From Eggerthellaceae bacterium (lineage in GTDB: Bacteria > Actinomycetota > Coriobacteriia > Coriobacteriales > Eggerthellaceae), in contig WRIR01000012.1 in assembly GCA_009782605.1 (NCBI GenBank), positions 183 through 64,182 on the forward strand: a DNA stretch of 64,000 nt, given 5' to 3'. The notes beneath the pieces were generated by a model. It saw only the letters and a program-made list of their open reading frames with translations, ran no database searches and was not told the DNA's origin. A program made the position numbers and the translations under genes. Shown one piece after another: positions 7,658 through 55,333 of the stretch (positions are counted from its first letter, which is position 1; the number at the start of each line of letters is the position of its first letter).

Positions 7658-10405
<2,748 letters not shown>

Positions 10406-10407
10406 TC

Positions 10408-12336: not shown

Positions 12337-12337
12337 C

Positions 12338-13519: not shown

Positions 13520-13555
13520 TTTTCCCTGTTCTCAAGCCCATAAGGATGTAAAACG

Positions 13556-37609: not shown

Positions 37610-37620
37610 GGCTGTGCCGC

Positions 37621-38865
37621 CTACCCTTTCGAGCTGCCCTCGATGATTCGGACGATGCTTTGGGCCAGGCTCCGCGCATTCCCTCCGTCGTTGAACGAGA
37701 CATACTTGGCGAGGAAGGCCTGTTGCTCTTGAGGGGAATGCCGTTCGTGGACAAGGGCTGCGACGAGGCTGCGGGCATCCCGGTGGATCCCCCCCGGCAT
37801 CTCGTGCGCGTAGTCGATGATAAGCCCACGCTCATGCTCGTACCTGTCGAGGTCGAATGCGAAGAAGTAGGTCGGCAGCCCCAAAAGCATGGACTCGAAG
37901 ATAAGCGAGGAGTAATCCGACACACAGGCCCAGGCGACCATGCCTATCTCGGTTGTTGAGAACCTCTTGTCGAACAGGACGCAGCTGCCCTGGCTGGCAG
38001 GCCCTTCCGTGGGGCTTTCGTAGGAATCCCCCGACTGATTCTTCCAGTTCTTCCGCTGCCTGGGATGGGGCTTGATAACCAGGGCATACTCGCCATGCTC
38101 CCGGTTTGCCTCGTTGACGGCCTCGACAAGCTCCCGGATCCTCCCGGGAAGCTCGTCGTTGTTCTTTCTCAATGTCGGGACATAGAGGATGACCTTCTTG
38201 TCCCGCAAGAAGGGGTAGGCTGCATAGACCGCCGAACGTGCCGCGCTTTTCGCTTCCTCGTCTTGGAGGAGGTCGACGCGGGGAAGGGCGCCGATAAGCG
38301 CCTCTTCGAGAGGGAGGGGGTGGGCCTTGCGGCCTTCGGAAGGGCTTTCTGTGTAGCCGAAGCACCGCAGCCGGGCATCCTTGGCGGCTTCCGAGCTTAC
38401 CAGGATATGGGTATACCCCTTGTGCATGGAAAGCACCCGGGCATTCTCCTTGCTCCAGCCTTCCTCGGTCCCGACCGCCGCATAGCCGATTTTCTTCATG
38501 AGCCCGAGGGCATGCCATATCTGTACGACCTTAAGGCCGCGCTTGTGGCTCAAGATGCTGATGGGGATGCAATAGGAGTCGAGTATGACGAGCCTTGACG
38601 TCGCAATATGGAACATCTGCACAAGCATGGCGGGAGCGTAGCGCAAAAGGCTGCCGAGGCCGCTGGAGAACCTCCGGCATTTTGTTGCGAACGCATAATC
38701 CGGCAACAGGGCTTCCAGCTCCGCCTGGAGCAAGGCAAAGTCCACAGAGGGGCCGTCTCCCAGTTTGCTTATGAATGTTATTTTCTTGCGCGTCGGAACC
38801 AGCTTCAAGAAGAAGTAGAGAAAACGCAAACAGGAGCATGCCGCCCTTATCCCTAAGGTAGACAT
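37621..38865 (-). CDS. CDP-glycerol glycerophosphotransferase family (TagB/TagF-like) protein
   Basis: Motifs: KKITFISK.G, VVQIWHALGLMKK.GY, ILYVPT.R, VIKPHP and VSDYSSLIFE..LLG.P..FFAFDLD.Y...RG. The start is uncertain; the ORF extends to 38952. Confidence 0.7.
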   Translation of the reverse strand: MSTLGIRAACSCLRFLYFFLKLVPTRKKITFISKLGDGPSVDFALLQAELEALLPDYAFATKCRRFSSGLGSLLRYAPAMLVQMFHIATSRLVILDSYCIPISILSHKRGLKVVQIWHALGLMKKIGYAAVGTEEGWSKENARVLSMHKGYTHILVSSEAAKDARLRCFGYTESPSEGRKAHPLPLEEALIGALPRVDLLQDEEAKSAARSAVYAAYPFLRDKKVILYVPTLRKNNDELPGRIRELVEAVNEANREHGEYALVIKPHPRQRKNWKNQSGDSYESPTEGPASQGSCVLFDKRFSTTEIGMVAWACVSDYSSLIFESMLLGLPTYFFAFDLDRYEHERGLIIDYAHEMPGGIHRDARSLVAALVHERHSPQEQQAFLAKYVSFNDGGNARSLAQSIVRIIEGSSKG

Positions 38866-39151
38866 GTCTCCAGCCCAGATCGAGCCCTTGCGCCGTTTCC
38901 AACAGTCGGTCTCATGAGCAAAGAATAGCACAAGGCACCCCGCGCCTCCCACCTCAAGGGAAAAATGGTTTTCAAGTGACTAACATTTTGGAAGGGGCGT
39001 GTTGTTGTACGATTTCCACAGGTGTAAAAACGGATAGGCGGGTCGGATGACCCAAGGGAAAATACCCCGGATTTGCCGATGAAGGACATATTGAAGACAG
39101 GCCGCACTTGAGGCTCCTCGCACAGGTCTCAGGTGTTTTGTCGGAGCAGGG

Positions 39152-40216: not shown

Positions 40217-40271
40217 CAATAGAGGTCGGCTTTAAAAGCGCATGTCGGATGATACGGATACATGAGGTGAT

Positions 40272-40910
40272 ATGAAGTACATTATTATGGCAGATGGGAA
40301 GAGCGACAGGTGGGACAACTACCTGTCTGTCCCCAAGCATTTCATAGAGATCGACGGGGAGCCCATCATCGAGCGCACGATACGCCTTCTGCACGCCTAT
40401 GACCAGAAAAGCGAGGTCATCGTCACCTCGCACAACAAGGACTATGAGCTTGCGGGCTCCACACGCTACGAGCCCCTTGACAATACCCTGGAAGTGGACA
40501 GGTTCACCCGAGAGCTCATAGTCGACGATACCTGCTTCCTCTACGGCGACACCTACTACACCGAAGACGCGATTCGCCGCATCATACAGACCGAGGCCGA
40601 GGACATCCTCTTTTTTGGGAACAGGGATTCGATCGTGGCTATCAAGATAAAGGACGGCGCCCTTTTCGAGGAGCACGTAGACCGGGTACGGGGCCTTTTC
40701 CTGATCGGGGCGATAGAGCACTGCATCGGATGGCAGGTGTACCAGTCGTTCCAGGGCCTGCCCTTCAACGGGAAGGGAATCGCCGACAAGTACATCCTCT
40801 TCAACGACAAGACCATGGATTTCAACGACCCGGAAGACTATTTGCGAAAAATCGGCAACTTCCCCTTGACAAACCCCGCGTTCCGCAGCATTTATGACCA
40901 GTCGACCTAG
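40272..40910 (+). CDS. NTP-transferase-like (MobA/LicC-type nucleotidyltransferase fold) protein
   Basis: N-terminus KYIIMADGKSDRW....PKHFIEIDGEPIIERTIRLL and DDTCFLYGDTYY. It is paralogous over its full length to residues 1-200 of the next ORF. Confidence 0.55.
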   Translation: MKYIIMADGKSDRWDNYLSVPKHFIEIDGEPIIERTIRLLHAYDQKSEVIVTSHNKDYELAGSTRYEPLDNTLEVDRFTRELIVDDTCFLYGDTYYTEDAIRRIIQTEAEDILFFGNRDSIVAIKIKDGALFEEHVDRVRGLFLIGAIEHCIGWQVYQSFQGLPFNGKGIADKYILFNDKTMDFNDPEDYLRKIGNFPLTNPAFRSIYDQST

Positions 40911-40922
40911 ACGGGGCCGTGC

Positions 40923-43910
40923 ATGGAGTTTGTCATAATATCAGGCGGGAACGGCGGTTTTTGGGAAGCACGTCAGGGCATGCTCGGCCGTCCGGCCAAG
41001 ATCGACGGAGAGACGCTGCTACAAAGGACGGCACGGCTTATCGGGGACTGCAACCCTGGAGGCAGTATCACGGTCGTTGCGGAAAACGACCCGGGCGTGC
41101 CGGAGGGCAGCGCCTTTTACCGCCTGCAGCAAGGCAGCCTGGAGATCGACCGCCTCCCCTATGAGCTGATCGAGGACGATACCTGCTTCCTTTTCGGGGA
41201 TGTCTTCTACACGCGTCCGAGCATGCTCAAGCTCATGGCCATCCCGACAAGCGATGTGGCCTTCTTCGGGTCAAAGGAACAGATCCTCGCCATCAAGGTG
41301 CACGATGCAGAGGCAATGAGGGCGCACGTCGACAGCATAAAAGAACGCTACGCCCAAGGAGAGATAGGCAGCTGCGGCGAATGGCAGCTCTATCAGTCGT
41401 TCACGGACCTTCCTTTTGGGGAGGCTGCCATCGCAGAGAACTACTTCCTGCTGTCCGCGGGTACGCGAAGCATCAGCAGCATTGAGGACTACCAGCAGCT
41501 CAGGAAGGCCCACAAGCGCAAAGCCGCCGCAAGGAAGCGCAGGGCGAGGAAGAAGGGGCGCCGAGACACCATCGAGAGAACCAAGAAGTTTTTATGGAAG
41601 GTACTCTCATTCAAGTTAGTTTTAGAAGGCTTCTCTATACCTCAGGCATTAGAATGGACCCACCGGGTCTATAGCGACCTTAGATGGAACAGGAGTGCGT
41701 CGTTGCGTGCTAAGCTGTGGGCTTACCGTCGTGGTTTTTTACCTGCACAGGTAAAAAGACTCGGGGTTTCAAGGATAGAGGCAGGCGGGCTAATCTCAGA
41801 AAGAGACTATCGTTTCATCATGCCTATTAACGGCATTTACAATAAATGGCTCCACAGCTTTTTTTTGAGAAAATATCTGTTTACTCCTTTCTCCGATTAT
41901 TTTGTTGAATGCTATTACCAAATCGGAAATAGAGACGGTCGACGCCAATTCATTCTCCTGCCTGATTGCCCTCAAGGCTATGGCGAAAATGCTCAAGATG
42001 TTTTGCAGCTTATTAAAGACAAGGGTTCTGTTGTAATAAAAAGGCTATCAGGAAAGAGTTATAAGAAAACCTACCATGTAAGCTATATTGAAAACACCTA
42101 CTTTATGGATGCACGAGAAATAACAGCACAAGATTTGGAAGAGTTTATTTCTCGATGCAAATCAGGAATCCTCCGAATTTTCGAACACCTGGAGTCTTCC
42201 TCTGACCACATATTGAATGTACAACTGATTATTATTAATGAATCAGGAAACGACCCTATTATCAGTGATGCTTTTGTCTTATGCAAACAATTCAAAACTG
42301 CTGTAAATTTTGGAAACTTTGAAAAAAAGGATTCTTTAAGGACAACTCAACTGATTAGAGTTGACGCAGAAACAGGGCGATACTCTTATGAGGGAATAGC
42401 AGAAACCGTCCCCTACTACCAAGAGATTAAAGAACAGGTTCGACGGATATGTCTTTTTGCAGTTACCCTTGAATTCATGGGTATAGCAATTACTATCGCT
42501 GATAACAGTTTCAAAATTACCCGCATGACCGCCAAGCCAGAGTATAAGAATTCATATACTTTCAGCGAATCTTCCACTTCTTATCTCTTGTCAAAGCTGG
42601 AAAAAAAGAATGCGAGTAAAAAAGGATTTATAAAAAAATCGAAGCACATTCGTCGCCAAATTGTATTAAGAATCCGAAGAAGATACACGCGAGCTTTCTT
42701 TCCACCGGGAGTCTACCCTTTTGTAGGAGCACGATGGACTTCACTAATCCTCAGTGACTTATGGATAAACAAAGATGCCACACTGAAAGAAAAACTATGG
42801 GCATACAAAAACGGTTTTCTTTCTTATCGAATCAAGCAATACGGCATTACCAAAGAAAACCGATTGAACTATATATCGGATCTTGAATACTATTGGCTGC
42901 GCCACATCAATAAAAAAGTAAGGATTGTTCTTGAAGACAAGATAACACCTCGTTATATTCTCCGTGACTATAAAGAGTGTTTTCCTGCCTATTACTACTA
43001 CGTTGCCCCTAGGCGCGGGGAAAATCGTATTATGCCTATGATAGATTGCCCAAAAGGGTATTCAGGAAAATATAGCGATGTCTTAAGATTAGTTGCCGAA
43101 AAGGGTGTGCTCGCTCTCAAGCCAGCCCAAGGCTCTCATGGTGACGGCTTCTTCAAATTCTCCTATGAGAACAATAAATACTATCTGAACTCTGAAGAAG
43201 TCAATGAAGAACAAGTTGAAGCTCTCTTCAAAGATGTCGATAATAAATATCTTATCACCGAGTATATTCAAATGCATCCTGAGCTGAAAAAAATATACGA
43301 GGGAGCAGTAAATACCCTTCGAATAGTTGTGTTCAAAAAAGACGGGAAAACGCCCGAAATCGGCAATGCATATATGCGCATTGGATCCAGCAAAACCGGG
43401 ACAGTAGACAATATGAGTGCCGGCGGCATGTACGCACAAATTGATACCGACACCGGACGCTACCACAAAGCCAAGAGCATCGAGAACAACCAAATCCTGC
43501 CATGCGAGTATCACCCTGATACGGGAGTAAAAATCGAAGGCTACCTCCCTAATTGGAATCTAACAAAACAGCTGGTTCTCGATATAGCACAAAAAATGCC
43601 ATTTCTTGAATATTTTGGATTTGATGTTGCGATAACCGAAAATGGTATTAAACTTCCTGAAATCAATAGATTCCCCGACTATCCAAAAATTGAAACACTC
43701 TCTGAAAACACCATTGATTATCTCCTCTACAAGCTGGAGCAAAAAAAATTGCGAGTTCACTATAATAAGAAAAGGTCAATAAGGTTGTTCAATTTGCCCA
43801 AAAGACCATTCACAGAGGAAGAACCGGGAACCGACTATTTGTACGAACAAGAACATGAGAATCTCAATGAACTTGAAGAATACCCGGAAGGCCACGAATA
43901 CTCTATATAG
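40923..43910 (+). CDS. tri-module fusion: NTP-transferase-like domain + K/R-rich linker + two tandem sugar-transfer-associated ATP-grasp modules
   Basis: Residues 1-200 parallel ORF 40272. The linker reads KAHKRKAAARKRRARKKGRR. Both modules open with RWNRSASLRAKLWAYRRGF / LWINKDATLKEKLWAYKNGF. Only the second keeps VDNMSAGGMYAQIDTDTG and FGFDVAIT.NGIKLPEIN. Confidence 0.7.
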   Translation: MEFVIISGGNGGFWEARQGMLGRPAKIDGETLLQRTARLIGDCNPGGSITVVAENDPGVPEGSAFYRLQQGSLEIDRLPYELIEDDTCFLFGDVFYTRPSMLKLMAIPTSDVAFFGSKEQILAIKVHDAEAMRAHVDSIKERYAQGEIGSCGEWQLYQSFTDLPFGEAAIAENYFLLSAGTRSISSIEDYQQLRKAHKRKAAARKRRARKKGRRDTIERTKKFLWKVLSFKLVLEGFSIPQALEWTHRVYSDLRWNRSASLRAKLWAYRRGFLPAQVKRLGVSRIEAGGLISERDYRFIMPINGIYNKWLHSFFLRKYLFTPFSDYFVECYYQIGNRDGRRQFILLPDCPQGYGENAQDVLQLIKDKGSVVIKRLSGKSYKKTYHVSYIENTYFMDAREITAQDLEEFISRCKSGILRIFEHLESSSDHILNVQLIIINESGNDPIISDAFVLCKQFKTAVNFGNFEKKDSLRTTQLIRVDAETGRYSYEGIAETVPYYQEIKEQVRRICLFAVTLEFMGIAITIADNSFKITRMTAKPEYKNSYTFSESSTSYLLSKLEKKNASKKGFIKKSKHIRRQIVLRIRRRYTRAFFPPGVYPFVGARWTSLILSDLWINKDATLKEKLWAYKNGFLSYRIKQYGITKENRLNYISDLEYYWLRHINKKVRIVLEDKITPRYILRDYKECFPAYYYYVAPRRGENRIMPMIDCPKGYSGKYSDVLRLVAEKGVLALKPAQGSHGDGFFKFSYENNKYYLNSEEVNEEQVEALFKDVDNKYLITEYIQMHPELKKIYEGAVNTLRIVVFKKDGKTPEIGNAYMRIGSSKTGTVDNMSAGGMYAQIDTDTGRYHKAKSIENNQILPCEYHPDTGVKIEGYLPNWNLTKQLVLDIAQKMPFLEYFGFDVAITENGIKLPEINRFPDYPKIETLSENTIDYLLYKLEQKKLRVHYNKKRSIRLFNLPKRPFTEEEPGTDYLYEQEHENLNELEEYPEGHEYSI

Positions 43911-43924
43911 TACTATGCGTCGAA

Positions 43925-46375
43925 ATGGGGGATTTGAAATTGAAAAAGAGGTTTGGGAAAACTAAAGACTACAAATATATTCTAAGTGGTCGTAACGCAG
44001 AAATCACAGAGTATCTTGGTTCAGAAACGGTAGTAAACATACCGGAAACTTTAAACAACTCTATTGTGGCCGCAATAGGTGAACGAGCTTTTTACAATAA
44101 TGAAAGTGTTACAAAAGTTTTTATACCGGCTTCTGTAAGTGCTTTGAGAAAGGAAGCTTTTTCATGTTGTAAAAATTTAATTAAGATCAATATAGACAAC
44201 GGGCTTTCCACTATTTCCTCTTTTTGTTTTTCGAATTGCAGCGCTTTAGACGCAATTATATTGCCAAAATCAGTTACTACTATTTATCGAGGAGCCTTTC
44301 GTAACTGCGTCGCACTCAAAGAAATTGAAATCCCCGAAGGGATTACTGTTTTAAGCGCAGAGTTGTTTTATGGTTGTGAGCGATTGGAGCAAGTTGGACT
44401 GCCTTATGGACTAGAGCGAATATACTCAGGTGCTTTTCAGAATTGTTCGAAGCTTCATACTTTTTACCACTATGGTAAAAGAAATATCAACTCTATAATG
44501 GTTATTGATAAGAACCTCAAAGAGTATGAATTCCCAACACGAATTACCCATATTGGCAACAGCGCATTTGAAGATTGCATTTCTTTATCCCAAGCAAGAA
44601 TTCCCCATAGAGTCAGCATTATTGGTGAAGGAACTTTCAAGAATTGTAAAGCTTTGACTACTGTTTATACACATAATCTATTGAGAGAAATTAAAAACGA
44701 GGCATTTTATGGTTGTGAAAATTTGAAGGTAATTAAGCTTCCTGTTTTTACTAGAAAAATAGGGCGAAATGCGTTCAATAGCCTCACTTGTATCCATTGT
44801 GAAAAAGCAGCCTTCGCTGCAACTTATGCTTCTCGCAATTATCTATCATGCCGTTATATTGAAGAATCAGCACCGTCTCTTTTCAGTCATATGATTCCCG
44901 CACAAAGCAAACGGGCAAAACTGAATAACCATCCTCTGTTCTATACAGAACAAGACCTTCGAGAATGCCAAGAAAAATTCGAAATGCGTCCCCCTTCCTA
45001 TAAAAAATCAGAAAAATCCTTTCGAACAGCAGAAGCAATAGAATCTTCCCGATTCGACTATGCAAATGGCATGTATACCAACAAAAATAGATCACAAAAA
45101 AGTAGAGCAGTTATTATGATGGCGGGAGGCCTGCTTTGTGGAGCCCGACATCAGGAGACATCTTTTGATAGCGGCAAATATTTTTTTGATACGAACTTCC
45201 TCCTTATAAAGGATCTTTTGAAACAGTCTGACTTTGCCATAGCAACGCTCGAATCCATGGTGTCTCCTTCTGCTCCTCTAACTGCTGAAGTTGAGTATGT
45301 TAACACCGCAAAACATCACAATGCTCCGGAATCATACTTAGGTGCAATTAGAAAAGCTTCGTTCGATGCAGTGATAAACGCCCAAAACCATGCGTACGAT
45401 ACTGGTGTTCAAGGCATTTTTGAAACACTCGATATGCAAAATAGATATCAACTGATGCATACCGGTGTTTTTGCCAGCACAGAGGATAAGCGATACCTTT
45501 TCCTTGAAATAAATGGCATTCGCATAGCTTGCTTGTCTTACCTTGATAGCGCAAAAGGGAGATTAAAGAAAGTGAATTTTAGCAGAATCGGACGAGAAAC
45601 CCTCCTTAATTATCTCAACAGTGACGAAGCAGAAAAAACACAAATAGGTCAAGATGTTGCAAATGCAAAGGCCGAAGGCGCAGAATTTATCATTGCTTTC
45701 TGTCATTGGGGAAAAGAGTATTCCCAGCAATTAACCGAGCGCCAGCTGCTCTTTAGCCAACAGGTCGCAGATGCTGGGGTTGATTACATTTTTGGTTCTC
45801 ATTCGCATTGCGTTCAACCTTACGATGTCATTACAGCAAGTGATGGTCGTCGAGTTCCGGTTTATTATTCGGCAGGAAGCCTAATATCGGATATCAGTGT
45901 GCGGCTTCCTATCACACGAGATGCCCTTATTGGTGAGCTGATATTGAAGAGAGACGAAGACGGACAAGTAACTATTGAACGTGAAGGATATTATCCTTGC
46001 AGAGTCGTGAATCTTGAAGAAGATGAGATAAACTACATGGTTGTTCCTACAGCCATGCAATTTGAAGAACGCACGCTCAGAAACAAACGCTTGGCTGATG
46101 CTGAGGGGCGAATAAAAAGAGCAGTAGGAACCAAGATAAACGAAAGAATCCCCCAGGAGATTCCTTTACTAATTAGCGAGCTAGCAATCCACAAAACCCC
46201 TGAATCCGAATTCGACATTGCAGAGGTAGCAAAACTTTTAGATGTCGAGTTTATAAAGAATAACGCCAACACAAAACTTAGCAACCTCACATACAGGATT
46301 AATAGTATAGACGAACACTCCGTTTTTGTTGGACTTCGCATAAAAGAACAAGAGCTCGATAGCACTAGTTCCTAG
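43925..46375 (+). CDS. BspA-type leucine-rich-repeat (LRR_5) + CapA/PGA_cap metallophosphatase-like fusion protein, no signal peptide
   Basis: The LRR units are of the type IGERAFYN...LRKEAFSCCKNL...ISSFCFSNCSAL...IYRGAFRNCVAL. The CapA blocks are ATLESMV, INAQNHAYD, AFCHWGKEY and FGSHSHCVQP. Confidence 0.75.
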   Translation: MGDLKLKKRFGKTKDYKYILSGRNAEITEYLGSETVVNIPETLNNSIVAAIGERAFYNNESVTKVFIPASVSALRKEAFSCCKNLIKINIDNGLSTISSFCFSNCSALDAIILPKSVTTIYRGAFRNCVALKEIEIPEGITVLSAELFYGCERLEQVGLPYGLERIYSGAFQNCSKLHTFYHYGKRNINSIMVIDKNLKEYEFPTRITHIGNSAFEDCISLSQARIPHRVSIIGEGTFKNCKALTTVYTHNLLREIKNEAFYGCENLKVIKLPVFTRKIGRNAFNSLTCIHCEKAAFAATYASRNYLSCRYIEESAPSLFSHMIPAQSKRAKLNNHPLFYTEQDLRECQEKFEMRPPSYKKSEKSFRTAEAIESSRFDYANGMYTNKNRSQKSRAVIMMAGGLLCGARHQETSFDSGKYFFDTNFLLIKDLLKQSDFAIATLESMVSPSAPLTAEVEYVNTAKHHNAPESYLGAIRKASFDAVINAQNHAYDTGVQGIFETLDMQNRYQLMHTGVFASTEDKRYLFLEINGIRIACLSYLDSAKGRLKKVNFSRIGRETLLNYLNSDEAEKTQIGQDVANAKAEGAEFIIAFCHWGKEYSQQLTERQLLFSQQVADAGVDYIFGSHSHCVQPYDVITASDGRRVPVYYSAGSLISDISVRLPITRDALIGELILKRDEDGQVTIEREGYYPCRVVNLEEDEINYMVVPTAMQFEERTLRNKRLADAEGRIKRAVGTKINERIPQEIPLLISELAIHKTPESEFDIAEVAKLLDVEFIKNNANTKLSNLTYRINSIDEHSVFVGLRIKEQELDSTSS

Positions 46376-46380
46376 AATCA

Positions 46381-46405
46381 AAGTAATCAACACAGCTGAT
46401 TACTT
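46381..46405 (+). terminator. AT-rich 9-bp hairpin between the two LRR-CapA paralogues (weak terminator/processing site candidate)
   Basis: aagtaatca (46381-46389) pairs with tgattactt (46397-46405) across a 7-nt loop. There is no strong T-run. Confidence 0.3.
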
Positions 46406-46458
46406 TAAGAGAGGGCAGTCAAGGAAAACAATTGTGGAACACAAGGGAGCGGCAGAGT

Positions 46459-49400
46459 ATGACCGGAACTAATCATGAAGCCAGGTCAAGAACAGAACAG
46501 GAACTAGGAGATAAGAAATTGGGCGTGGTTAAGGAAACAGAAAACTACAGGTTTACTGTGCTTGGTCACAGTGCAGAGATTCTTGAATATGTTGGTTCGA
46601 AAACATGTGTAGACATACCGGAAATCCTAGGTGACTGCACCGTTACTTCAATAGGCGAACGCGCCTTTTACAACACAGCTATCATCAAGGTAACCACACC
46701 AGACTCAGTAGTAGCGCTGGGAAAGGAAGCTTTTTCGTGCTGTAGAAACCTTGTCGAAATAAACATCAACACGAGCCTTACTACAATATCCTCTTTTTGC
46801 TTTTCAAGTTGTAGTGCCTTAAAAAAAGTGACTCTTCCAGAATCACTTACCACTCTTCATGAAGCAGCCTTCTATAATTGCAGCAATCTTGAAGAAGTTG
46901 AAATTCCGAGAGGAATTGCCGTCTTAAATGCAGAACTTTTTTTTGGCTGCGAAAAACTAAAGCAAATCGGGCTGCCCCATAACTTGAATCGGATATGCTC
47001 CGAAGTCTTTAAAAACTGTTCTAATCTCGAAAACTTTTACTATTGCAGCATACCAACCACCAAGCACATCATGATGAGTGCAAATCAAAAGAAAAGGACA
47101 TACGAGCTTCCTGATCACATCAGCCATATAGGAAAAAACGCATTTGAAAACTGCGCTTCTTTAAGAAAAATAAGAATACCTTATAAAGTAAGCATAATAA
47201 ATGAAGGGGTTTTTAAGAACTGCACAGTTTTAGCAAAAGTTCATGTGCATAGCTCATTAAAAGAGATAAAAAATGAAGCTTTTTATGGCTGTGAAAATTT
47301 GGAGGAGATTAAACTTCCGGGTTTTACAAAAAAAATTGGAGACAATGTATTTAGCCGAAAAACAGAAATTCTCTGCGAGGGAGAAGATTTTGGTGCAATA
47401 TATGCTGCTCAAAATGCTTTGCCATGTCGGTATATTGTGAAAACAACACCACCGCTCTCAAGCCATATGATTCCTTCTCAAAACGAACAGGTCAATCTCA
47501 GTGATTGCACCTCCTTTTATACGGAGGAAGACTTAAGAAAATGTGTAGAGAAATTTGAAATGCGCCCTCCTTCCTATGAGTACATTCAAAGGTCTAATAT
47601 GGCTGTTGAAGAAGAAATAGCTTCTTCTCGATTTGTTTATAAAGAAGGCAAATACATCAATAAAAATCGAACAGCCGAAGGTAGAGCAACAATCATGATG
47701 ACCGGAGATCTGATGGCTCTTCCTAGATATCAAGGGTTTTCGAGCAAAGCCGATCGATACATTTTTGATAGTAGTTTTCATTTTGTTAAGGATATTTTGC
47801 AACAGTCGGACTTTGCGATTGGAAATCTAGAATCTTTAGTAGCTCCCTCTGCGCCCCTGATGATTGAGACTGAATATGTTGATGGTGTCCTCCACCTGAA
47901 CGCTCCGGAATCATATTTAAGAGCTATAAAAGAAGCTTCTTTCGATGCTGTTATTAACGCACAAAACCACATTTATGATGCCGGTGTTCGAGGAATTTTT
48001 GAAACACTTGATATGCAAAATAAGTACCAATTAATGCACACCGGCGCTTTTGTCGGTAATGAGGACAAAAGATATTTAATGCTTGAGATAAATGGAATTA
48101 GAATAGCTTGCGTATCATATTTTGATCTCGCAAGGCAACCAACGAGGAGCGTGAATTTTACAAATATTGGAAAGCAAACTCTTTTTAGTCTTCTAGGTAT
48201 TCAAGAAACAGTATTACAGCAAATTACACAAGACATTGAGGATGCAAAAGCAGAAGGCGCTGAATTTATCATTGCTTTTTGTCACTGGGGAAAAGAATAT
48301 ACAAACGAATTGACAGACCGACAAATTCTCTTCAGTAAAACCATTGCAAAAGCCGGAGCAAACTATATTTTCGGGTCTCACCCACACTGTGTGCAGCCCT
48401 ATGATGTTATTACAACTGATGATGGGAGAAGTGTCCCGGTTTTTTATTCGGCAGGAAATTTTATGTCTGACAGTAGTGCGTGGTCGTCTGTTAGCAGAGA
48501 TACCATTATTGGAGAATTGGTTCTAAGGAAAGATGAAAGCAAGGGCGTATACATTGAAAGTAGCGGGTACTACCCTTGTAAAATAATGAATCTCGAAAAA
48601 GATTCCTTCACCTATACCGTTATTCCAACTGCTATGAAATTCGAAGGGAGCCCAGCCAAAAATAAATATTTATCAGACGCTGAAATAAAAATAGAAAAAA
48701 ATATAGGAGCAAAGATAAAAAAATTAATTCCTCAAGGAATAGTCCTAACGGTAATCAAAAAATCACAGGCAAAAGGCGATAGCGAAGCTTATCACAAGAC
48801 AAAACACTTAAAGACTGGAGATGATAGCCTTGTGTTTACCATCGAAGAGCTTTGTTATCTATTAAAAATAGAATTGCCGAAACAATATCAAGAGAATAGT
48901 AGTTTTTTTGTGACTCAGACATCTTTGTTCAATAGATTGGAAAACAAAGAAAAACTATTGAGAGAAATAAAGGAAACAGAAGATTACTGCTATCATCATT
49001 ATGAAGAAATCAAAGCTAACGCCGCACAGTTTAAGAATCATTACTGTGGCGTAGGGAATACAAGAAAAACTGAAACTGAGTTACTGGAAATGTTTGTTGA
49101 ATGGATTTATATTTTCAGGCCCTTAGGCTTTTATCCCGATGACTATTTTAATTATGAGCTATATGATAAGACGATTACAGAAGCTAATGAATTTATTAGT
49201 GGTGAATACAGAAGGAAAATTGCAAAAGTATGCAGAAATAATTCGTATTTAAAATACTTTCTTAACAAAGTTTTTTTCCTTAAAACTTTCAGCAGATATG
49301 TAAAACGCGACTATTTAGATACGACCTCATGCACCTTGAGCGAATTTAAAGCATTTACCGAAAAAAATCCTCAATTTTTCGGTAAACCAATCCTGGGTTC

Positions 49401-50013
49401 CGGTGGTCACAATTCCGGTATTTTTGAATCGAACGACAATGATATACAACTGCTTCAGAAATGCAAAAAGGAGAAACTGATTGTTGAAGAAATTGTTAGG
49501 CAACACGAAAGTTTGGCTGCATTTAATAAAAGTACCTTAAACACAATAAGAATATATACTTTGCTAACAGCCAATAATGAGGCTATTGTAATGCTCGCCG
49601 GAGCTCGTTTTGGAAGAGCAAGTGCTGTAGTTGACAATTTTCATAGCGGCGGTCTAACGGCTGGTGTTGATATTCTTACGGGCATGGTTGTCACTGACGC
49701 CATAAATAGAGACCATGTTCGATACTCCGTACATCCAGATTCTTTATTGGAATTTCGAGGGTTTCAGGTTCCTTGCTGGAATCAGGCAATAGAGACTGTA
49801 AAAGAATCGGCGAAACAGATGCCCCATGTTAGACATGTAGGATGGGATGTCGCCATAACTAATCAAAATGAAATCGAACTTATCGAAGGAAATTCATTAC
49901 CAAACTTTGATATTACGCAAGCAGTAGATCAGATTGGGAAGAAGTACCTTTATGAAGAACATATTAACGAACTGGAAGCTGTTGCAAAGAAGAAAGACTC
50001 GAAAAGAAAGTAG
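46459..50013 (+). CDS. BspA-type LRR + CapA/PGA_cap + sugar-transfer-associated ATP-grasp triple fusion protein
   Basis: AAGGGAG lies 9 nt before ATG 46459; the track ORF opens with TTG at 46432. The LRR and CapA parts look about 60-70% identical by eye to ORF 43925. The C-terminal ATP-grasp has FFGKPILGSGG, NTIRIYTL, VDNFHSGGLTAGVDILTG and VGWDVAITNQNEIELIEGNS. Confidence 0.75.
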   Translation: MTGTNHEARSRTEQELGDKKLGVVKETENYRFTVLGHSAEILEYVGSKTCVDIPEILGDCTVTSIGERAFYNTAIIKVTTPDSVVALGKEAFSCCRNLVEININTSLTTISSFCFSSCSALKKVTLPESLTTLHEAAFYNCSNLEEVEIPRGIAVLNAELFFGCEKLKQIGLPHNLNRICSEVFKNCSNLENFYYCSIPTTKHIMMSANQKKRTYELPDHISHIGKNAFENCASLRKIRIPYKVSIINEGVFKNCTVLAKVHVHSSLKEIKNEAFYGCENLEEIKLPGFTKKIGDNVFSRKTEILCEGEDFGAIYAAQNALPCRYIVKTTPPLSSHMIPSQNEQVNLSDCTSFYTEEDLRKCVEKFEMRPPSYEYIQRSNMAVEEEIASSRFVYKEGKYINKNRTAEGRATIMMTGDLMALPRYQGFSSKADRYIFDSSFHFVKDILQQSDFAIGNLESLVAPSAPLMIETEYVDGVLHLNAPESYLRAIKEASFDAVINAQNHIYDAGVRGIFETLDMQNKYQLMHTGAFVGNEDKRYLMLEINGIRIACVSYFDLARQPTRSVNFTNIGKQTLFSLLGIQETVLQQITQDIEDAKAEGAEFIIAFCHWGKEYTNELTDRQILFSKTIAKAGANYIFGSHPHCVQPYDVITTDDGRSVPVFYSAGNFMSDSSAWSSVSRDTIIGELVLRKDESKGVYIESSGYYPCKIMNLEKDSFTYTVIPTAMKFEGSPAKNKYLSDAEIKIEKNIGAKIKKLIPQGIVLTVIKKSQAKGDSEAYHKTKHLKTGDDSLVFTIEELCYLLKIELPKQYQENSSFFVTQTSLFNRLENKEKLLREIKETEDYCYHHYEEIKANAAQFKNHYCGVGNTRKTETELLEMFVEWIYIFRPLGFYPDDYFNYELYDKTITEANEFISGEYRRKIAKVCRNNSYLKYFLNKVFFLKTFSRYVKRDYLDTTSCTLSEFKAFTEKNPQFFGKPILGSGGHNSGIFESNDNDIQLLQKCKKEKLIVEEIVRQHESLAAFNKSTLNTIRIYTLLTANNEAIVMLAGARFGRASAVVDNFHSGGLTAGVDILTGMVVTDAINRDHVRYSVHPDSLLEFRGFQVPCWNQAIETVKESAKQMPHVRHVGWDVAITNQNEIELIEGNSLPNFDITQAVDQIGKKYLYEEHINELEAVAKKKDSKRK

Positions 50014-50203
50014 TGTACAAATAAAGACGCCGCCCTAAAATCGAGCGATATTGTTCTCAAAGATGATACAATTCTTGCTAAAGTTCCATGGAATGAGTTT
50101 TATTGAAATCATCTGCTTTTTGGAAAAGCCATAAAGAACCCACGCTTATCTCCCGTTGGTTATCTAAATACATGTAATTACTAAAAGATAAGAAATCTGG
50201 AAA

Positions 50204-50293
50204 ATGTTTAAAAATAATGAACCTGACTTTGATATTGAAGCAATTGCCGAATTGCTCAATACTCGACTAGGGGGTTTGATAAGAAAGGCTTGA
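50204..50293 (+). CDS. 29-codon ORFlet abutting the next gene (possible gene remnant)
   Basis: MFKNNEPDFDIEAIAELLNTRLGGLIRKA*. Its TGA (50291-50293) is immediately followed by the ATG ATG of ORF 50294. No SD is seen. Confidence 0.15.
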   Translation: MFKNNEPDFDIEAIAELLNTRLGGLIRKA

Positions 50294-52750
50294 ATGATGC
50301 GTGATTTTATACACCAAGGTGAAATCAGCATACGCTACATACTTCGCAAAGCTGCCGCGCCTTCCGATATTCTTGTCGTCACGTTTCCCGGTGCACATGG
50401 ATGGCGGGAAAATGCCATGCCGCATTTGGGGTATGCCTATTTGAACGCCATTGCTTCCTTCAATGTCAACGGACTCTTTCTTAAGGGAGGCATTGAAGAA
50501 GAGGCGAGCACCCTTGGGCGCATGGTCTGTGTTAATCGCGATTTCAAGGTTGAACGTACAGTAGTCGAGCTCATCAACAGAGCAAAAGAGGAAACCGGCA
50601 GTACCCGCGTTATTGCTATTGGTTCAAGTATGGGCGGATGGTGCAGCGCATACTATGGGCTGAAGTATGGGTATGATGTTATCTCGGGTTCACCAGCGTA
50701 TGAGTTCAAAAGCGATCAAAGCGTGGAATTCGTTGCAGGGGGCACCAGTGAGGAAGATTATGGGTTTTGTAACTCCCTTATGCCCAATGTCATAAAGAAT
50801 GCGGGAGCGGACGGCTACGACAAGTTTTTTTTCATCTCGTGGGGAGAGGGCGAGGGGAACTGGGTACGAAAGGAGCATGGCCCCCAATTTCTTGCAGCTT
50901 TAGATGAGGCGAGCATTAAATACAAGCATAAGCTGCATAGCTTCTCTTCTCACTGGGCTGTTCATTGGTTATTTCCAGATGTCTTAACTCGACAGCTTTC
51001 AGCCGCACTTGGACTACCGGTAAGCGAAGAACAAGAGGCGTTAACGGATTTACAAAAAGCAAGCACAGAGATTAAAAAAATGAAAGAAACCCTCAAAGCG
51101 GAAATTGACGCTCTTGATGGGTCCGCGCCGAACTACAGCAATGCTTACATTGTAGGCTATGGCAGTAATAGCCGCGACATACAGCTCCGTACCTTCGTTT
51201 ATGGAGCGCAGGGATATCATTGGTGGCGAAGAGGGGAGGGGCAAGAGAAAGCCTACAATATTGGTCCTCTTGACGTATTCTGGGGATCAGCCACCGTCAT
51301 AAACGAGGACTATGCTACATCTTTTTGGTTTCATCAGACACTGCTTAATTTCTATAAAACCGAAGGAAACCAAGATGCGTGGGAGCTGCTCGATAAAAGT
51401 ACACGCCAGTTTTTCTACCAAGTTGATGCGGTTGCGAAAGTGGCGAAGACATATAACAGTTGGTGGACGGCAGTACGCCGGATGCATTTCTTCCTTGATT
51501 GGGCGAATGTGCTTGATGGCCATAACGTGCCGGACGGCATTACTGCCCAAGTAACCGATACGCTCAATATCCTCCTCGATATACAGCTGGCCATAAACTT
51601 CAATGCGACGAATCAATATCGTGTCCTTCTTGCCTTGACTCATGCAACACAGTATTTCCGGAACAGTGCAGCTTTTTTTGAAAAAGCATCCATGGCGGAG
51701 CTTCATGGTTTTGCGGCATTGAATAGCTATTACTTTGACAAGAATGGGATATGTGTGTTTCAGCAAGTGCGTGCCCAACACGCACTGCGCACACAGGTTA
51801 ACGTGCTTATCGAGTTCATAGTCGGGAATGAGTTTTCTCATGACCCAATAATGAAGAAAATCAAACGGCATGCAGAGAAAATTGAAAACGCGACCAGGCA
51901 CCTCATACGTCCCAACGGGCAAATACCGAATCTTGGACATACTGTCGGGGGGAAAACCAAGCTGGCACGTTCAGGTGGAAACCTCATCTTGCCGACATCC
52001 AATCTGGCAATACTCGATGAAGAGGGAACATACATCACCATCAACAGCGGCAACCCGTGCCATTCGGCGTACAAGCATTGCGACTTGCTCTCGTTCACGT
52101 TCTTCTATGATGGGCGCCTGCTTGTTGCAGATGCGGGCGGCGGTGTCGGCGCACTTGCGGATTTTTCGTGCTCCGCGATAGCGCACTCAGCGTTGATCTG
52201 CGACGACAGCGATTACGTCATTCCTGAGTACAGCGATTTCACCACAATCGATGCGGTTTCAGAACATGAGGACTATGTCTTGCTCGGGATGTCGCACCGG
52301 CTGTATCCGGATGTGGAGCTGCGCCGTGCCTTTTTGTGGCTCAAGCCGAATATCGTGATCCTGCTTGACTCTGCCGAGTCCGGCACAGAACATGCCTACG
52401 TGCAGAACTTCTTGCTCGAAAAGGATGCCCAGCAATTCCTGTCGATCACGCAACAGGGCAACAGCTGCGACCTCGAAACCTTCACTGGCACAACGGATGC
52501 CGACGATTACGAGCACCTGCGCGGCTCGATTATCTCCAACCTTAAGAAGCCTGCGCGGGCCATGAACCTTGCATACACGCAGAAGGGCACGTCGGCAAGC
52601 TATGTGACCGTGCTTGAGGCCCACAGCGGCAAAGAGGGTGAGATCGCCATCAAGTCTGTGCAGGTTGACGGTGGAAATGTTAAGATAACGCCCGTCAAGG
52701 GCAGCACAAAAGTAATCCCCCTTGATGTCGAGGCGGGTCAGTTGATATGA
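50294..52750 (+). CDS. alpha/beta-hydrolase-like N-terminal domain fused to heparinase II/III-like (alpha/alpha toroid + beta-sandwich) domain
   Basis: N-terminus ILVVTFPGAHGW...VIAIGSSMGGWCSAYYGLKYG (GxSxG nucleophile elbow, reminiscent of Asp2). C-terminus HSAYKHCDLLSFTFFYDGRLLVADAGG......AHSALICDD, typical of heparinase II/III family proteins. Confidence 0.6.
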   Translation: MMRDFIHQGEISIRYILRKAAAPSDILVVTFPGAHGWRENAMPHLGYAYLNAIASFNVNGLFLKGGIEEEASTLGRMVCVNRDFKVERTVVELINRAKEETGSTRVIAIGSSMGGWCSAYYGLKYGYDVISGSPAYEFKSDQSVEFVAGGTSEEDYGFCNSLMPNVIKNAGADGYDKFFFISWGEGEGNWVRKEHGPQFLAALDEASIKYKHKLHSFSSHWAVHWLFPDVLTRQLSAALGLPVSEEQEALTDLQKASTEIKKMKETLKAEIDALDGSAPNYSNAYIVGYGSNSRDIQLRTFVYGAQGYHWWRRGEGQEKAYNIGPLDVFWGSATVINEDYATSFWFHQTLLNFYKTEGNQDAWELLDKSTRQFFYQVDAVAKVAKTYNSWWTAVRRMHFFLDWANVLDGHNVPDGITAQVTDTLNILLDIQLAINFNATNQYRVLLALTHATQYFRNSAAFFEKASMAELHGFAALNSYYFDKNGICVFQQVRAQHALRTQVNVLIEFIVGNEFSHDPIMKKIKRHAEKIENATRHLIRPNGQIPNLGHTVGGKTKLARSGGNLILPTSNLAILDEEGTYITINSGNPCHSAYKHCDLLSFTFFYDGRLLVADAGGGVGALADFSCSAIAHSALICDDSDYVIPEYSDFTTIDAVSEHEDYVLLGMSHRLYPDVELRRAFLWLKPNIVILLDSAESGTEHAYVQNFLLEKDAQQFLSITQQGNSCDLETFTGTTDADDYEHLRGSIISNLKKPARAMNLAYTQKGTSASYVTVLEAHSGKEGEIAIKSVQVDGGNVKITPVKGSTKVIPLDVEAGQLI

Positions 52751-52765
52751 AGCGAGGCAAGGTAG

Positions 52766-53584
52766 ATGCTCTACAAGGTCAGTGTTAACCAATCCATCCT
52801 CGATTTGTTGTCCGTTCGGCATGTCTTGATGCTGAGCAGCAGGTATCATCGCGACATCAGCATCAAGATCGGGGATACGGTGGTCTTTGCAGACGACCTT
52901 GAGGTATACCCCTATACCACGTTCATGGCGGGAAATGCGCTCTTCAGCATGGGCTCTTTCAGTTACTCGCGCTCAGAGCTCGGCGGGGACGCGGGCAGGA
53001 ACAACGTGCAGCAGGTCCAGGTCGGGCGCTACTGCTCGATAGCCGACAACGTGCGGGTCTTCCAAGGCAACCACCGCATGGACGCATACACTACCAGCAG
53101 CTTCATTTACGCATTCCCCGGCTTCCGGCACGAGACGTGGCATGTCAGGGAAAGGGCGAAGGAAAAAGGGATCGAAAGGCCGGCTGCCCTCGCATTGGGG
53201 GATGACGATGTTTGCCAGACCGTAAGAATCGGCAACGATGTCTGGATCGGCTCCCATGTGGCATTGAAGCCGGGCATACGCATCGGCGACGGTTCCTGCA
53301 TCGGCACGGGGGCGCTTGTTACCAAGGATGTGCCGCCCTATGCGATAGTTGCAGGCGTGCCCGCCAAGGTTGTCAAGTACCGTTTCGATGACAGCGTGAT
53401 AGAGCAGCTGCTCGCGCTCAGGTGGTGGGACTACGACTTTTTAGACTTCGCCGTGCACCCCGAAGAGCCGATAGACGCTTTTATCAAGGCAGTGAAAGAG
53501 CAGGTAGAGAGCAACAAGATACTGCCGTACAGCTCGGACCCGATACGGGCAAAGGACATACTGGGATTAAGGAGTGGCACATAA
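52766..53584 (+). CDS. hexapeptide-repeat acyltransferase of the xenobiotic acyltransferase (XAT; Vat/CatB-like) class
   Basis: Motifs: GNHRMDAYTTSSF, VRIGNDVWIGSHVALKPGIRIGDGSCIGTGALVTKDVPPYAIVAGVPAKVVKYRF and LLALRWWDY. Confidence 0.8.
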   Translation: MLYKVSVNQSILDLLSVRHVLMLSSRYHRDISIKIGDTVVFADDLEVYPYTTFMAGNALFSMGSFSYSRSELGGDAGRNNVQQVQVGRYCSIADNVRVFQGNHRMDAYTTSSFIYAFPGFRHETWHVRERAKEKGIERPAALALGDDDVCQTVRIGNDVWIGSHVALKPGIRIGDGSCIGTGALVTKDVPPYAIVAGVPAKVVKYRFDDSVIEQLLALRWWDYDFLDFAVHPEEPIDAFIKAVKEQVESNKILPYSSDPIRAKDILGLRSGT

Positions 53585-53817
53585 TGGAACAGCAGTTCAT
53601 TGACCTTCTGAACAAGGTAAACGAAGAGATCTTCGACAACCCCGATGCCGATCTCGTCGAGGATGGCGTTATAGACAGCCTCGACATCATGAACCTCGTT
53701 GCCGGGCTGGAGCAGGTCTTCGGGGTTGACTTCGACCCGGACGACATAATACCGGAGAACTTCGCATCCCCCGAAGCCCTGTGGGGGCTCGTCCAGCGCT
53801 ACCAGGCAGAGAGGTGA
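53584..53817 (+). CDS. D-alanyl-carrier-protein-like (DltC-like) aminoacyl carrier protein
   Basis: 77 aa. The ATG overlaps the preceding TAA (TAATG). The Ser attachment context is EDGVIDSLDIMNLVAGLEQVFGV, and length and layout match DltC. Confidence 0.75.
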   Translation: MEQQFIDLLNKVNEEIFDNPDADLVEDGVIDSLDIMNLVAGLEQVFGVDFDPDDIIPENFASPEALWGLVQRYQAER

Positions 53818-53821
53818 CAGT

Positions 53822-55333
53822 ATGCCGGTGCTGAAGTCCGTGACGCAGTGGCTTGATGCCACGGCAGAGAGGCTGCCCGACAAGGTCGCGTTCGGCGAGG
53901 ACAAGGCAGGGACGTTGACCTTTGCGCAGCTGCGCGGCGCTTCGCGTGCAACGGGCACGTTCTTGGCGAAACGGGGAATAAACAAGCAGCCGGTTCTGGT
54001 TGCCCTGGGTAAGACTCCGCAGTGCGTAGCGGCGATGCTCGGGGCAGCATATGCCAACTGCCCGTATACGCCGCTGGATGTTGACATGCCGCCAGGGCGC
54101 ATCCGCAAGGTTATCGACACCCTGCAACCGGCCGCCTGTATCACGGATGCCAAGCACGAGCAGCTGATGCTTGAAAGTGGGTTGGCGCAGGACAGCATCC
54201 TGCTCTACGAGTGCGTATCGAACACCCCCATAGACGAAGATGCTTTGGCAGACGTCCATGAAAGGCGTATCAGCACAGACTTGCTGTACATCCCTTTCAC
54301 CAGCGGCTCTACGGGTGCGCCGAAAGGCGTTGCGGTAAGCAACGGCAACGTGATCGACTACACGCCCCAGGCTGCCGAGAAGTTCGGCTTTAACGATGAG
54401 ACGGTTTTCGGGCAAAGCGTGCCTTTTGTTTTCGACGGCTCTATACTCTACGTCTACCAGACGCTGCTGAACGGCTGCACGGATTGGATAATCTCGAAAG
54501 TCGACCTGATGTTCGCTGCAAAGACGGTGGACTTCCTTAACAGGCACCGGTGCAACACGGTTTACATGATGCCGACCCTCTACAGCATAATTGCGAAAAG
54601 CGGCATATTGAACAAATCCAAGCCTGAGTATCTGCAAAAGTGCCTATTCGTGGGAGAGGTGATGCCCAATAGCGTGTTGAACATATGGCGGCGAGCATTG
54701 CCGAAGGCGACATTTGCGAACCTGTTCGGGCCCACGGAGGCAACAACCTTTTTATGCTATGTCGTCGACCGCGACTTCACCGACGAAGAGCCTTTGCCTA
54801 TCGGGACGCCGTATGAAAACAACGAAGTCTTGCTATTGGACGAGAACGGCACCGAGACGAAACGCGGCGAGGTGGGCGAGATGTGCGTTAGGGGGGCAAA
54901 AGTGACGCAGGGGTACTACAACGACCCCGAAAGGTCGGCCGCAGTGTTCGTGCAGAACCCCTTGAACAGGGCATACCGCGAGACAATCTACAGGACAGGC
55001 GACTTTGCATACCTCAATGAGCAGGGCGAGTACATGTTCATGGGGCGCAAGGACTTCCAGGTAAAGCTCGCGGGGCACCGTATCGAGCTCGGGGAGGTCG
55101 AAGTTCAGGCAATGGCAATGCCTGGGGTGGAGCTCTGCGCCTGCGTGCTCGATGAGGAGGCACAAAGACTTGTGTTGTTCTATGTCGGAGAGGCCGGGCA
55201 AAAGGAGCTGAGGGACGAACTGAAGCGCAAGCTGCAGGGCTATATGGTTCCCGCGCAGATAACGTCGATCGATGCCATGCCCAGGACAGGCAGCGGCAAG
55301 ATAGACAGGATCGCTTTGAAAGAGGCCCTTTGA
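53822..55333 (+). CDS. DltA-like amino acid--carrier protein ligase (adenylate-forming enzyme)
   Basis: 503 aa. Motifs: LLYIPFTSGSTGAPKGV, FGPTE, YRTGD, GRKDFQVKLAGHRIELGEVE and PRTGSGKIDR. Confidence 0.8.
   Translation: MPVLKSVTQWLDATAERLPDKVAFGEDKAGTLTFAQLRGASRATGTFLAKRGINKQPVLVALGKTPQCVAAMLGAAYANCPYTPLDVDMPPGRIRKVIDTLQPAACITDAKHEQLMLESGLAQDSILLYECVSNTPIDEDALADVHERRISTDLLYIPFTSGSTGAPKGVAVSNGNVIDYTPQAAEKFGFNDETVFGQSVPFVFDGSILYVYQTLLNGCTDWIISKVDLMFAAKTVDFLNRHRCNTVYMMPTLYSIIAKSGILNKSKPEYLQKCLFVGEVMPNSVLNIWRRALPKATFANLFGPTEATTFLCYVVDRDFTDEEPLPIGTPYENNEVLLLDENGTETKRGEVGEMCVRGAKVTQGYYNDPERSAAVFVQNPLNRAYRETIYRTGDFAYLNEQGEYMFMGRKDFQVKLAGHRIELGEVEVQAMAMPGVELCACVLDEEAQRLVLFYVGEAGQKELRDELKRKLQGYMVPAQITSIDAMPRTGSGKIDRIALKEAL

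Follow-up and report, generated by a model that had tools for sequence, protein, structure and literature searches.

O-antigen gene clusters have low-GC central regions. At the pneumococcal cps locus, recombination takes part in serotype switching (PMC4380333; PMC5850285). Here we describe a locus of similar layout from a member of the Eggerthellaceae, found in a stretch of 64,000 nucleotides (the window), in which the open reading frame (ORF) 40923-43910 on the forward strand passes from GC-rich into AT-rich DNA. As at surface-polysaccharide loci such as cps, a variable centre that is AT-rich and of foreign composition is bordered by conserved genes that belong to the same pathway, the break points fall in or beside intact genes, and related loci have different genes in the middle. 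However, neither alternative alleles nor a donor have been sampled for the window locus, its host is an uncultured bacterium, and its alleles are far more unlike in composition than the pneumococcal ones. Its left break also lies in a multidomain enzyme, at an inter-domain helix, and not in a conserved flanking gene. For the enzyme itself, the ATP-grasp amidoligase domain of Cj1438 from C. jejuni (PMC11800379) is the closest analogue that has been characterised.

We read ORF 40923 as a mosaic gene, an ordinary kind of event at a surface-polymer locus. Our preferred explanation, to which we give a probability of roughly two in three, is that the 17.9-kb cluster around the gene is an old, host-adapted island in which a homologous AT-rich allele later took the place of the central 8.7 kb, and that the domain fusion in the gene already existed when this happened. 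The features of the locus are collected in Table 1.

The 995 open codons of ORF 40923 encode a protein of 115.6 kDa, a little above the approximately 113 kDa estimated in the initial annotation. The domain layout given there holds: a nucleotidyltransferase (NT)-like head is followed by a basic stretch and by a body of two ATP-grasp modules, which are recognizable as copies of each other (mutual identity 25%, E 2e-38). Within this gene, the G+C content at third codon positions (GC3) changes at codon 222 (nt 41589), from 0.76 on the left to 0.40 on the right, with a log-likelihood ratio (LLR) of 45.7. This change point was obtained by maximum likelihood on third codon positions, and its 2-lnL support interval is given in Table 1. 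When all bases are used, the change point is 41791 (41562-41825), with a GC of 0.55 before and 0.39 after. The discontinuity exceeds the genome background, as ORF 40923 ranks first of 831 for a high-to-low GC3 break (LLR 47.7; 99th percentile 15.8). This ranking covers the frames in the 1.95-Mb genome that stay open for 300 codons or more, with the null restricted to high-to-low breaks. The codon switch is only a few codons wide: host-type codons (AAG, CGC, AGG, GCC) run through AAG AAG (41583-41588), and AT-type codons start at TTT TTA (41589).

These results agree with what had first been read from the letters. The hand-counted G+C values of 39/60 at 41521-41580 and 21/60 at 41581-41640 are exact, and the transition zone of about 50% that was said to precede the low-GC DNA is found as 32, 30 and 29/60 in the three 60-nt lines after 41640, followed by about 20-22/60. 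The frame is intact across the break, with ORF 40923-43910 open throughout. The proposal that the break joins DNA of two histories also stands, with host-like DNA on the left (GC3 0.76, genome median 0.78) and AT-rich DNA on the right, where the GC3 of 0.33-0.40 is among the lowest in the coding DNA of this genome. The intragenic high-to-low GC switch in ORF 40923 is therefore confirmed as real. A separate internal start for the body is ruled out, as codon 222 has no in-frame ATG, GTG or TTG in its vicinity and Met does not occur again until residue 301. On the AT-rich side, close to the junction, lies a 180-nt patch of about 50% GC (41641-41820), with a run of GC-ending codons at 41658-41705. 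This patch could be a leftover of the resident allele, or it could simply reflect a protein sequence rich in Arg, Gly and Ala.

The protein sequence changes at the same place as the DNA. Gly, Ala, Arg and Pro (GARP) make up 28% of the head, 52% of the linker and 21% of the body. The GARP content of the body resembles that of its low-GC homologues, and that of the head is the highest among all heads. The closest relative with the same layout, P0002, comes from the Eggerthellaceae metagenome-assembled genome G004, which is placed in the same genus as the genome of the window (G000). Amino acid identity to this orthologue climbs at the junction, from about 0.43-0.45 to 0.68-0.75; over the whole domains it is 44% for the head and 69% for the body.

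Table 1. Coordinates in the window of ORF 40923, its parts and the genes around it.
Feature	Coordinates	Strand	Details
Mosaic ORF	40923..43910	+	995 aa; NT-like head, long basic helix, dead ATP-grasp module, catalytic ATP-grasp module (predicted)
Head, residues 1-195	40923..41507	+	NT-like alpha/beta fold; GC3 0.74; GARP 28%
GC-rich part of basic inter-domain helix, residues 196-222 (KRKAAARKRRARKKGRRDTIERTKK)	41508..41588	+	From codon listing; GC3 0.85
Left junction (proposed recombination)	41574..41727	.	GC3 change-point support interval, best nt 41589 (codon 222/223)
ATP-grasp module 1, residues ~223-560	41589..42602	+	Degenerate internal duplicate of module 2
ATP-grasp module 2, residues 561-995	42603..43910	+	Catalytic module (predicted), PF14397
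AT-rich block, ~8.7 kb	41589..50312	.	GC 0.39; GC3 0.33-0.40; 21-25% host-rare codons
TagF-like CDP-glycerol glycerophosphotransferase (PF04464)	37621..38952	-	Pfam E 2.5e-44; GC3 0.76; leftmost island gene
Single-module ATP-grasp (PF14397), 354 aa	39152..40216	+	Left flank; GC3 0.77, GC1 0.49, GC2 0.35
Free-standing NT-like gene, 212 aa	40272..40910	+	Intact G-x-x-x-R-W ... PK loop
LRR_5 + PGA_cap (CapA-like), 816 aa	43925..46375	+	Pfam; entirely within AT-rich block
LRR_5 + PGA_cap + ATP-grasp, 1193 aa	46432..50013	+	Pfam; last gene of AT-rich block
Alpha/beta-hydrolase-like + heparinase II/III-like, 818 aa	50294..52750	+	Pfam
Right flank: hexapeptide acyltransferase; carrier protein; AMP-binding ligase	52766..53584; 53584..53817; 53822..55333	+	GC3 0.74

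The initial annotation took the junction for the event that created the domain fusion, and this part of the proposal is not borne out. A search of 5.8 billion proteins found five other proteins with the full layout of head and body (P0002-P0006, 48-63% identity), and several hundred body-only relatives of about 750-800 aa. In all five fused relatives the GC3 of head and body is uniform (0.49 and 0.47, 0.59 and 0.59, 0.62 and 0.58, 0.37 and 0.35, and 0.36 and 0.43), and in the four that were tested the change-point LLR does not exceed 8. Fused homologues of uniform composition were the very observation that the annotation had named as speaking against a fusion made at the junction. Additionally, the six fused bodies are monophyletic (support 100/99), and the body of the window protein is sister to the P0002 body (100/100). 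Therefore, the fusion arose once, before the junction, and is older than the GC break. With the same full-length architecture in relatives, both parents of the mosaic gene could have been complete alleles.

Separate head and body genes do exist elsewhere, and this state is found in most relatives and is ancestral for the family, but not for this locus. In the split loci L024 and L025, a 202-aa gene is followed by a 761-aa gene and a 193-aa gene by a 769-aa gene, respectively, with a gap of 16 nt in both. The order in these loci is conserved as TagF-like transferase, single ATP-grasp, NT-like gene and double ATP-grasp, so the components of the fused protein are found as neighbouring separate genes in the same order. 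This resembles a Rosetta-stone fusion of adjacent operon genes, in that small NT-like and double ATP-grasp genes adjoin and are a single ORF in one clade. The difference is that the sub-clade of the window also keeps a free NT gene, and that its fused copy is without the loop Arg discussed below.

The separate genes are one of two observations that would fit a resident head joined by the junction itself to a foreign double ATP-grasp gene. The other is that the break lies within about 5-15 codons of the position where free-standing double-grasp genes start. We nevertheless consider such an origin of the fusion very improbable, given the uniform composition of the five fused homologues and the place of the window body inside the fused clade, as sister to the fused body of G004. 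The basic K/R-rich linker argues in the same direction, as this stretch is also present in P0002 of G004 and is shared with P0005. Moreover, the GC-rich side already encodes the start of the helix that belongs to the body. In free-standing double-grasp proteins, which start at the equivalents of residues ~205-218 of the window protein, the N-terminal basic helix aligns with its residues from about 207 on. Since the GC-rich segment reaches residue 222, the resident piece already held the start of the body.

According to the structure prediction, the K/R-rich linker belongs to a single helix of 48 residues (187-234; 41481-41624) and does not form a disordered tether, with a predicted local distance difference test (pLDDT) score of 83-89. 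Ahead of module 2 there is a similar basic helix, at residues 569-592.

The head is a paralogue of the product of the upstream ORF 40272 (35% identity). Its nucleotide-binding loop reads SGGNGGFW...RPAK, while the free copy reads ADGKSDRW...PKH; the Arg is absent from the head, which does not have the G-x-G-x-R loop followed by Lys. No profile match to MobA/IspD-like nucleotidyltransferases (PF12804, PF01128) was found for the head at E <= 0.01, and ORF 40272 reaches 26.3 and 24.9 bits against these two profiles, under the cut-off of 27. Judged from the predicted model, the likeness of the head to these enzymes is one of fold only. The branch of the head in its tree is long (1.29, compared to 0.46 for the body). 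Conversion of the head by its upstream paralogue was considered and rejected, as the protein identity is only 35% and the shared DNA amounts to 72% over 75 nt.

In fused heads, the Arg of the G-x-G-x-R loop is lost only where a free NT gene is kept (G000, G004 and L039), and the loci with only the fused gene (L003, L004 and L026) retain G-x-G-T-R-W in the head. This pattern suggests duplication, then fusion, then decay of the redundant head copy. The presence of a free NT gene beside a fused copy without the loop Arg makes it probable that a duplication came before the fusion.

The cluster at 37621-55333 is a 17.9-kb island between a U32 peptidase gene and tyrS. The spacing between these two genes is 120-304 bp in the same-genus genomes G001, G003 and G005, compared to 17.9 kb in the window, and the GC change point places the left edge of the island at 37811 (37620-37884). 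In G004, three other ORFs (~4.6 kb) lie between the U32 peptidase gene and tyrS, and the homologous cluster is found elsewhere in the genome.

The island itself consists of compositional strata. The outer stratum contains the TagF-like gene, the single ATP-grasp gene, the free NT gene, the head, the last third of ORF 50294, and the acyltransferase, carrier and AMP-ligase genes. In these outer genes GC3 is host-like (0.71-0.80), but GC1 (0.49-0.57) and GC2 (0.32-0.40) are low against the genome medians for GC1, GC2 and GC3 of 0.65, 0.46 and 0.78 (total GC 61.8%). Host-like GC3 with low GC1 and GC2 is the signature expected of an old import with equilibrated synonymous sites. Outer genes with host-like synonymous sites that still encode AT-type proteins therefore indicate long residence in GC-rich DNA. 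The inner stratum is the AT-rich block, where host-rare codons make up 21-25% of the codons, compared to 4-6% in the flanks. Its right edge had been placed at the start of ORF 50294, and the change point of 50312 (50217-50375; GC 0.37 before and 0.48 after) is in agreement with this. A second step is seen inside ORF 50294 at 52031-52047, where GC3 rises from 0.49 in the first 579 codons to 0.71. This intermediate stratum suggests more than one exchange event.

We infer the order of events from parsimony, and the donor and recombination mechanism in it are likewise conditional. Genes for a TagF-like transferase, a single ATP-grasp protein, a small NT-like protein and a double ATP-grasp protein normally lie side by side in this family, in that order. 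One clade departs from this, as a copy of the small NT-like gene became fused to the double ATP-grasp gene via the long basic helix. In the lineage of the window, a 17.9-kb version of the cluster forms the island that separates the U32 peptidase gene from tyrS. In a later event, about 8.7 kb of its centre was probably swapped for the homologous stretch of an AT-rich allele, from codon ~222 of the fused gene through both LRR-CapA genes. The left crossover would have fallen inside the inter-domain helix with the frame kept, and the right end of the replacement in the intergenic DNA ahead of ORF 50294. An older or separate exchange may have ended at about 52.03 kb.

Composition alone cannot order these events. 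The opposite order would have an AT-rich cluster first, of which the outer parts (38.9-41.6 and 50.3/52.0-55.3 kb) were overwritten from a GC-rich relative; as a variant, the whole mosaic island could have been imported ready-made from another GC-rich genome. In favour of this, no relative has the island at this site, and all sampled relatives of the cluster are low- to mid-GC. However, two flanking replacements would be needed against one central replacement, and the AT-type GC1 and GC2 with host-like GC3 in the flank proteins fit long residence better than import from a long-standing GC-rich lineage. We therefore regard the opposite order as unlikely.

It is also quite improbable that the block was never imported, but is an old resident that diverged in place, for example as a strain-specific cassette that escaped GC-biased gene conversion unlike the shared flanks. 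Three observations are in line with such a history: the body is 69% identical to G004, at the level of the genome-wide orthologue median (71%), no donor was returned by the searches described below, and the dinucleotide signature of the block is not clearly foreign. On the other side, the composition step is only a few codons wide, and the flanks, although GC-adapted, are accessory DNA too, as G001, G003 and G005 do not have them at this site. The GC3 of the block (0.33-0.40) also lies under that of the orthologues in a congener of 50% GC (0.44-0.47).

If the central block was replaced, as we propose, the donor was probably an unsampled low-GC relative about as distant as G004. The genus spans a GC of ~48-62%, with ~48-50% in G001, G003 and G004 and ~60-62% in G005 and G000 (the loci in G001, G003, G004 and G005 are L028, L030, L037 and L038). 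With this span, and with the body identity to G004 near the orthologue median, a low-GC congener is a quantitatively plausible donor. The genes downstream of the fused gene differ among G000, G004 and L039, and the middle of the locus is therefore variable. In L039, a 1785-aa protein with ATP-grasp, LRR_5, PGA_cap and Mur-ligase domains is encoded directly downstream of the fused gene (9747-15104).

A metagenomic assembly chimera, in which homologous genes served as the joining point between contigs from two organisms, one GC-rich and one AT-rich, would also produce a sharp intragenic break, and the genome assembly, with 30 contigs and 83% completeness, is of a kind in which this might occur. 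However, the foreign genome would have to be entered and left at syntenic, in-frame positions, and DNA with a GC3 of 0.76 and of 0.35 would share no long k-mers. The locus is also reproduced across assemblies. Five contigs encode the exact ORF 40923 protein, and contigs of 49.7 kb (JGI) and 26.7 kb (Logan) match the window at 100% identity along 23.0 and 16.7 kb, respectively, with both block edges spanned. A chimera is accordingly highly improbable.

Several points weigh against a replaced centre in an old island. The identical contigs may come from overlapping read sets. Neither a donor nor a pre-replacement allele was found when the whole protein, the head alone, ORF 43925 and the left-flank ATP-grasp were searched against the 5.8 billion proteins, metagenome contigs and genome contigs; G004 stays nearest, with 69% for the body and 61% for ORF 43925. 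The same searches found no other fused protein that shares the head of the window protein, and the DNA of the block had no match among plasmids and phages. The GC-normalised dinucleotide signature of the block (delta* 70) is below the 95th percentile of the genome (78). In addition, the two histories are proven by composition only and not by phylogeny. The tree path between the window head and the G004 head is 2.12, compared to 0.61 for the bodies, but a sister relation of these heads is not significantly rejected by the approximately unbiased (AU) test (p = 0.09). The head of P0005 is equally long-branched, and relaxed constraint can account for the low head identity of 44%, as the head is redundant and degenerate; such a head under GC pressure would evolve fast. 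Finally, alleles so unlike in composition would leave very little identity for homologous recombination at the crossover.

Flanking repeats, tRNA genes or mobile-element scars at the block edges were considered and rejected; no flanking direct repeat was found, as the matches were short chance ones or the paralogue pair itself. Promoter- and terminator-like sites were no commoner than in shuffled sequence.

The position of the left crossover raises the more general idea that the basic inter-domain helix is a recombination-tolerant seam, at which Eggerthellaceae of very different GC swap the catalytic cassette while the resident head and flanks are kept. We find this idea fairly unlikely. If true, the cassette would consist of the dead and the live ATP-grasp modules with the LRR-CapA genes, its exchange would change the peptide or amide groups with which a teichoic-acid-type wall polymer is decorated, and the locus would be a case of natural domain-boundary cassette swapping in cell-wall decoration enzymes.

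The two modules of the body differ in their motifs. Module 1 is without the GSHGDG glycine-rich loop, the VDNMSAGG motif and the D/E/N metal ligands, and it has no Pfam match. Its dead state is conserved across all homologues, both fused and split. Module 2 matches PF14397 (ATPgrasp_ST) over residues 719-920 with 133.5 bits, above the gathering cut-off of 31.4, and has the conserved Lys and Glu and the Asp/Glu/Asn ligands, with K733, E780, D901, E913 and N915 being nearly invariant. The weak match to TIGR02291 (RimK-related) has 42 bits and lies far under the cut-off of 314, and no match to the TupA-like model was found in the window protein at E <= 0.01. A search of solved structures by sequence gave no significant match to the window protein.

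The AlphaFold model of the ORF 40923 product has a pLDDT of 87.8 and a predicted template modelling (pTM) score of 0.78 (52-sequence alignment). With the model of the body, Foldseek returned Ddl, RimK, LysX and carbamoyl-phosphate synthetase with a probability of 0.99-1.0. RimK, LysX and D-Ala-D-Ala ligase are the best structural matches (probability 1.0, TM-score 0.4-0.5 on the target), but their sequence identity to the window protein is only 9-16%.

Based on motifs, predicted fold and gene neighbours, the ORF 40923 product is most likely an ATP-dependent amide ligase that acts on a teichoic-acid-type wall polymer or its precursor. On the same basis, only module 2 looks catalytic, while module 1 and the head of the window protein look like non-catalytic scaffolds. 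The neighbourhood behind this assignment includes the TagF-like transferase, ABC exporter genes in relatives, a DltA/DltC-like pair and CapA-like proteins. Cj1438 serves as a functional analogy for module 2, as its ATP-grasp domain, encoded in a surface-polysaccharide locus, amidates a sugar carboxylate and is joined to a second biosynthetic domain. However, it belongs to another ATP-grasp family, its partner is a GT2 glycosyltransferase and its polymer is a different one. PF14397 is a computationally predicted family, described as sugar-transfer associated ATP-grasp, which agrees both with the match of module 2 and with the TagF-like transferase neighbours. The window protein differs from it by the added dead duplicate module and NT-like head. 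No paper was found in a literature search on PF14397. With 21-25% host-rare codons in the AT-rich body, the 116-kDa product may be poorly translated.

Among the other genes of the island, several have orthologues in G004. ORF 39152 is 68-70% identical to its G004 orthologue, ORF 40272 is 66-67% identical to those of G004 and L039, ORF 50294 is 76% identical, and the acyltransferase and AMP-binding ligase are 82-86% identical. Within the block, ORF 46432 is a tandem paralogue of ORF 43925, to which it is linked by the repeats D1 and D2. Other AT-rich islands in G000 are found at C1:70-76 kb, C2:69-73 kb and C2:152-167 kb. The last of these encodes surface-polysaccharide enzymes (polysaccharide pyruvyl transferase and CMP-sugar-type cytidylyltransferase), and its dinucleotide signature is close to that of the block (delta* 26).

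Cassette replacement in surface-polymer loci is already well known, and the general interest of one more case is modest. As a clean and well-bounded example of two strata joined in frame, ORF 40923 shows that a GC break within a gene is not necessarily the point at which a domain fusion originated. For the family, our results point to an uncharacterised and widespread four-gene module of TagF-like, ATP-grasp, NT-like and double ATP-grasp proteins, which exists both in split and in fused form and in which the middle of the locus is exchangeable.

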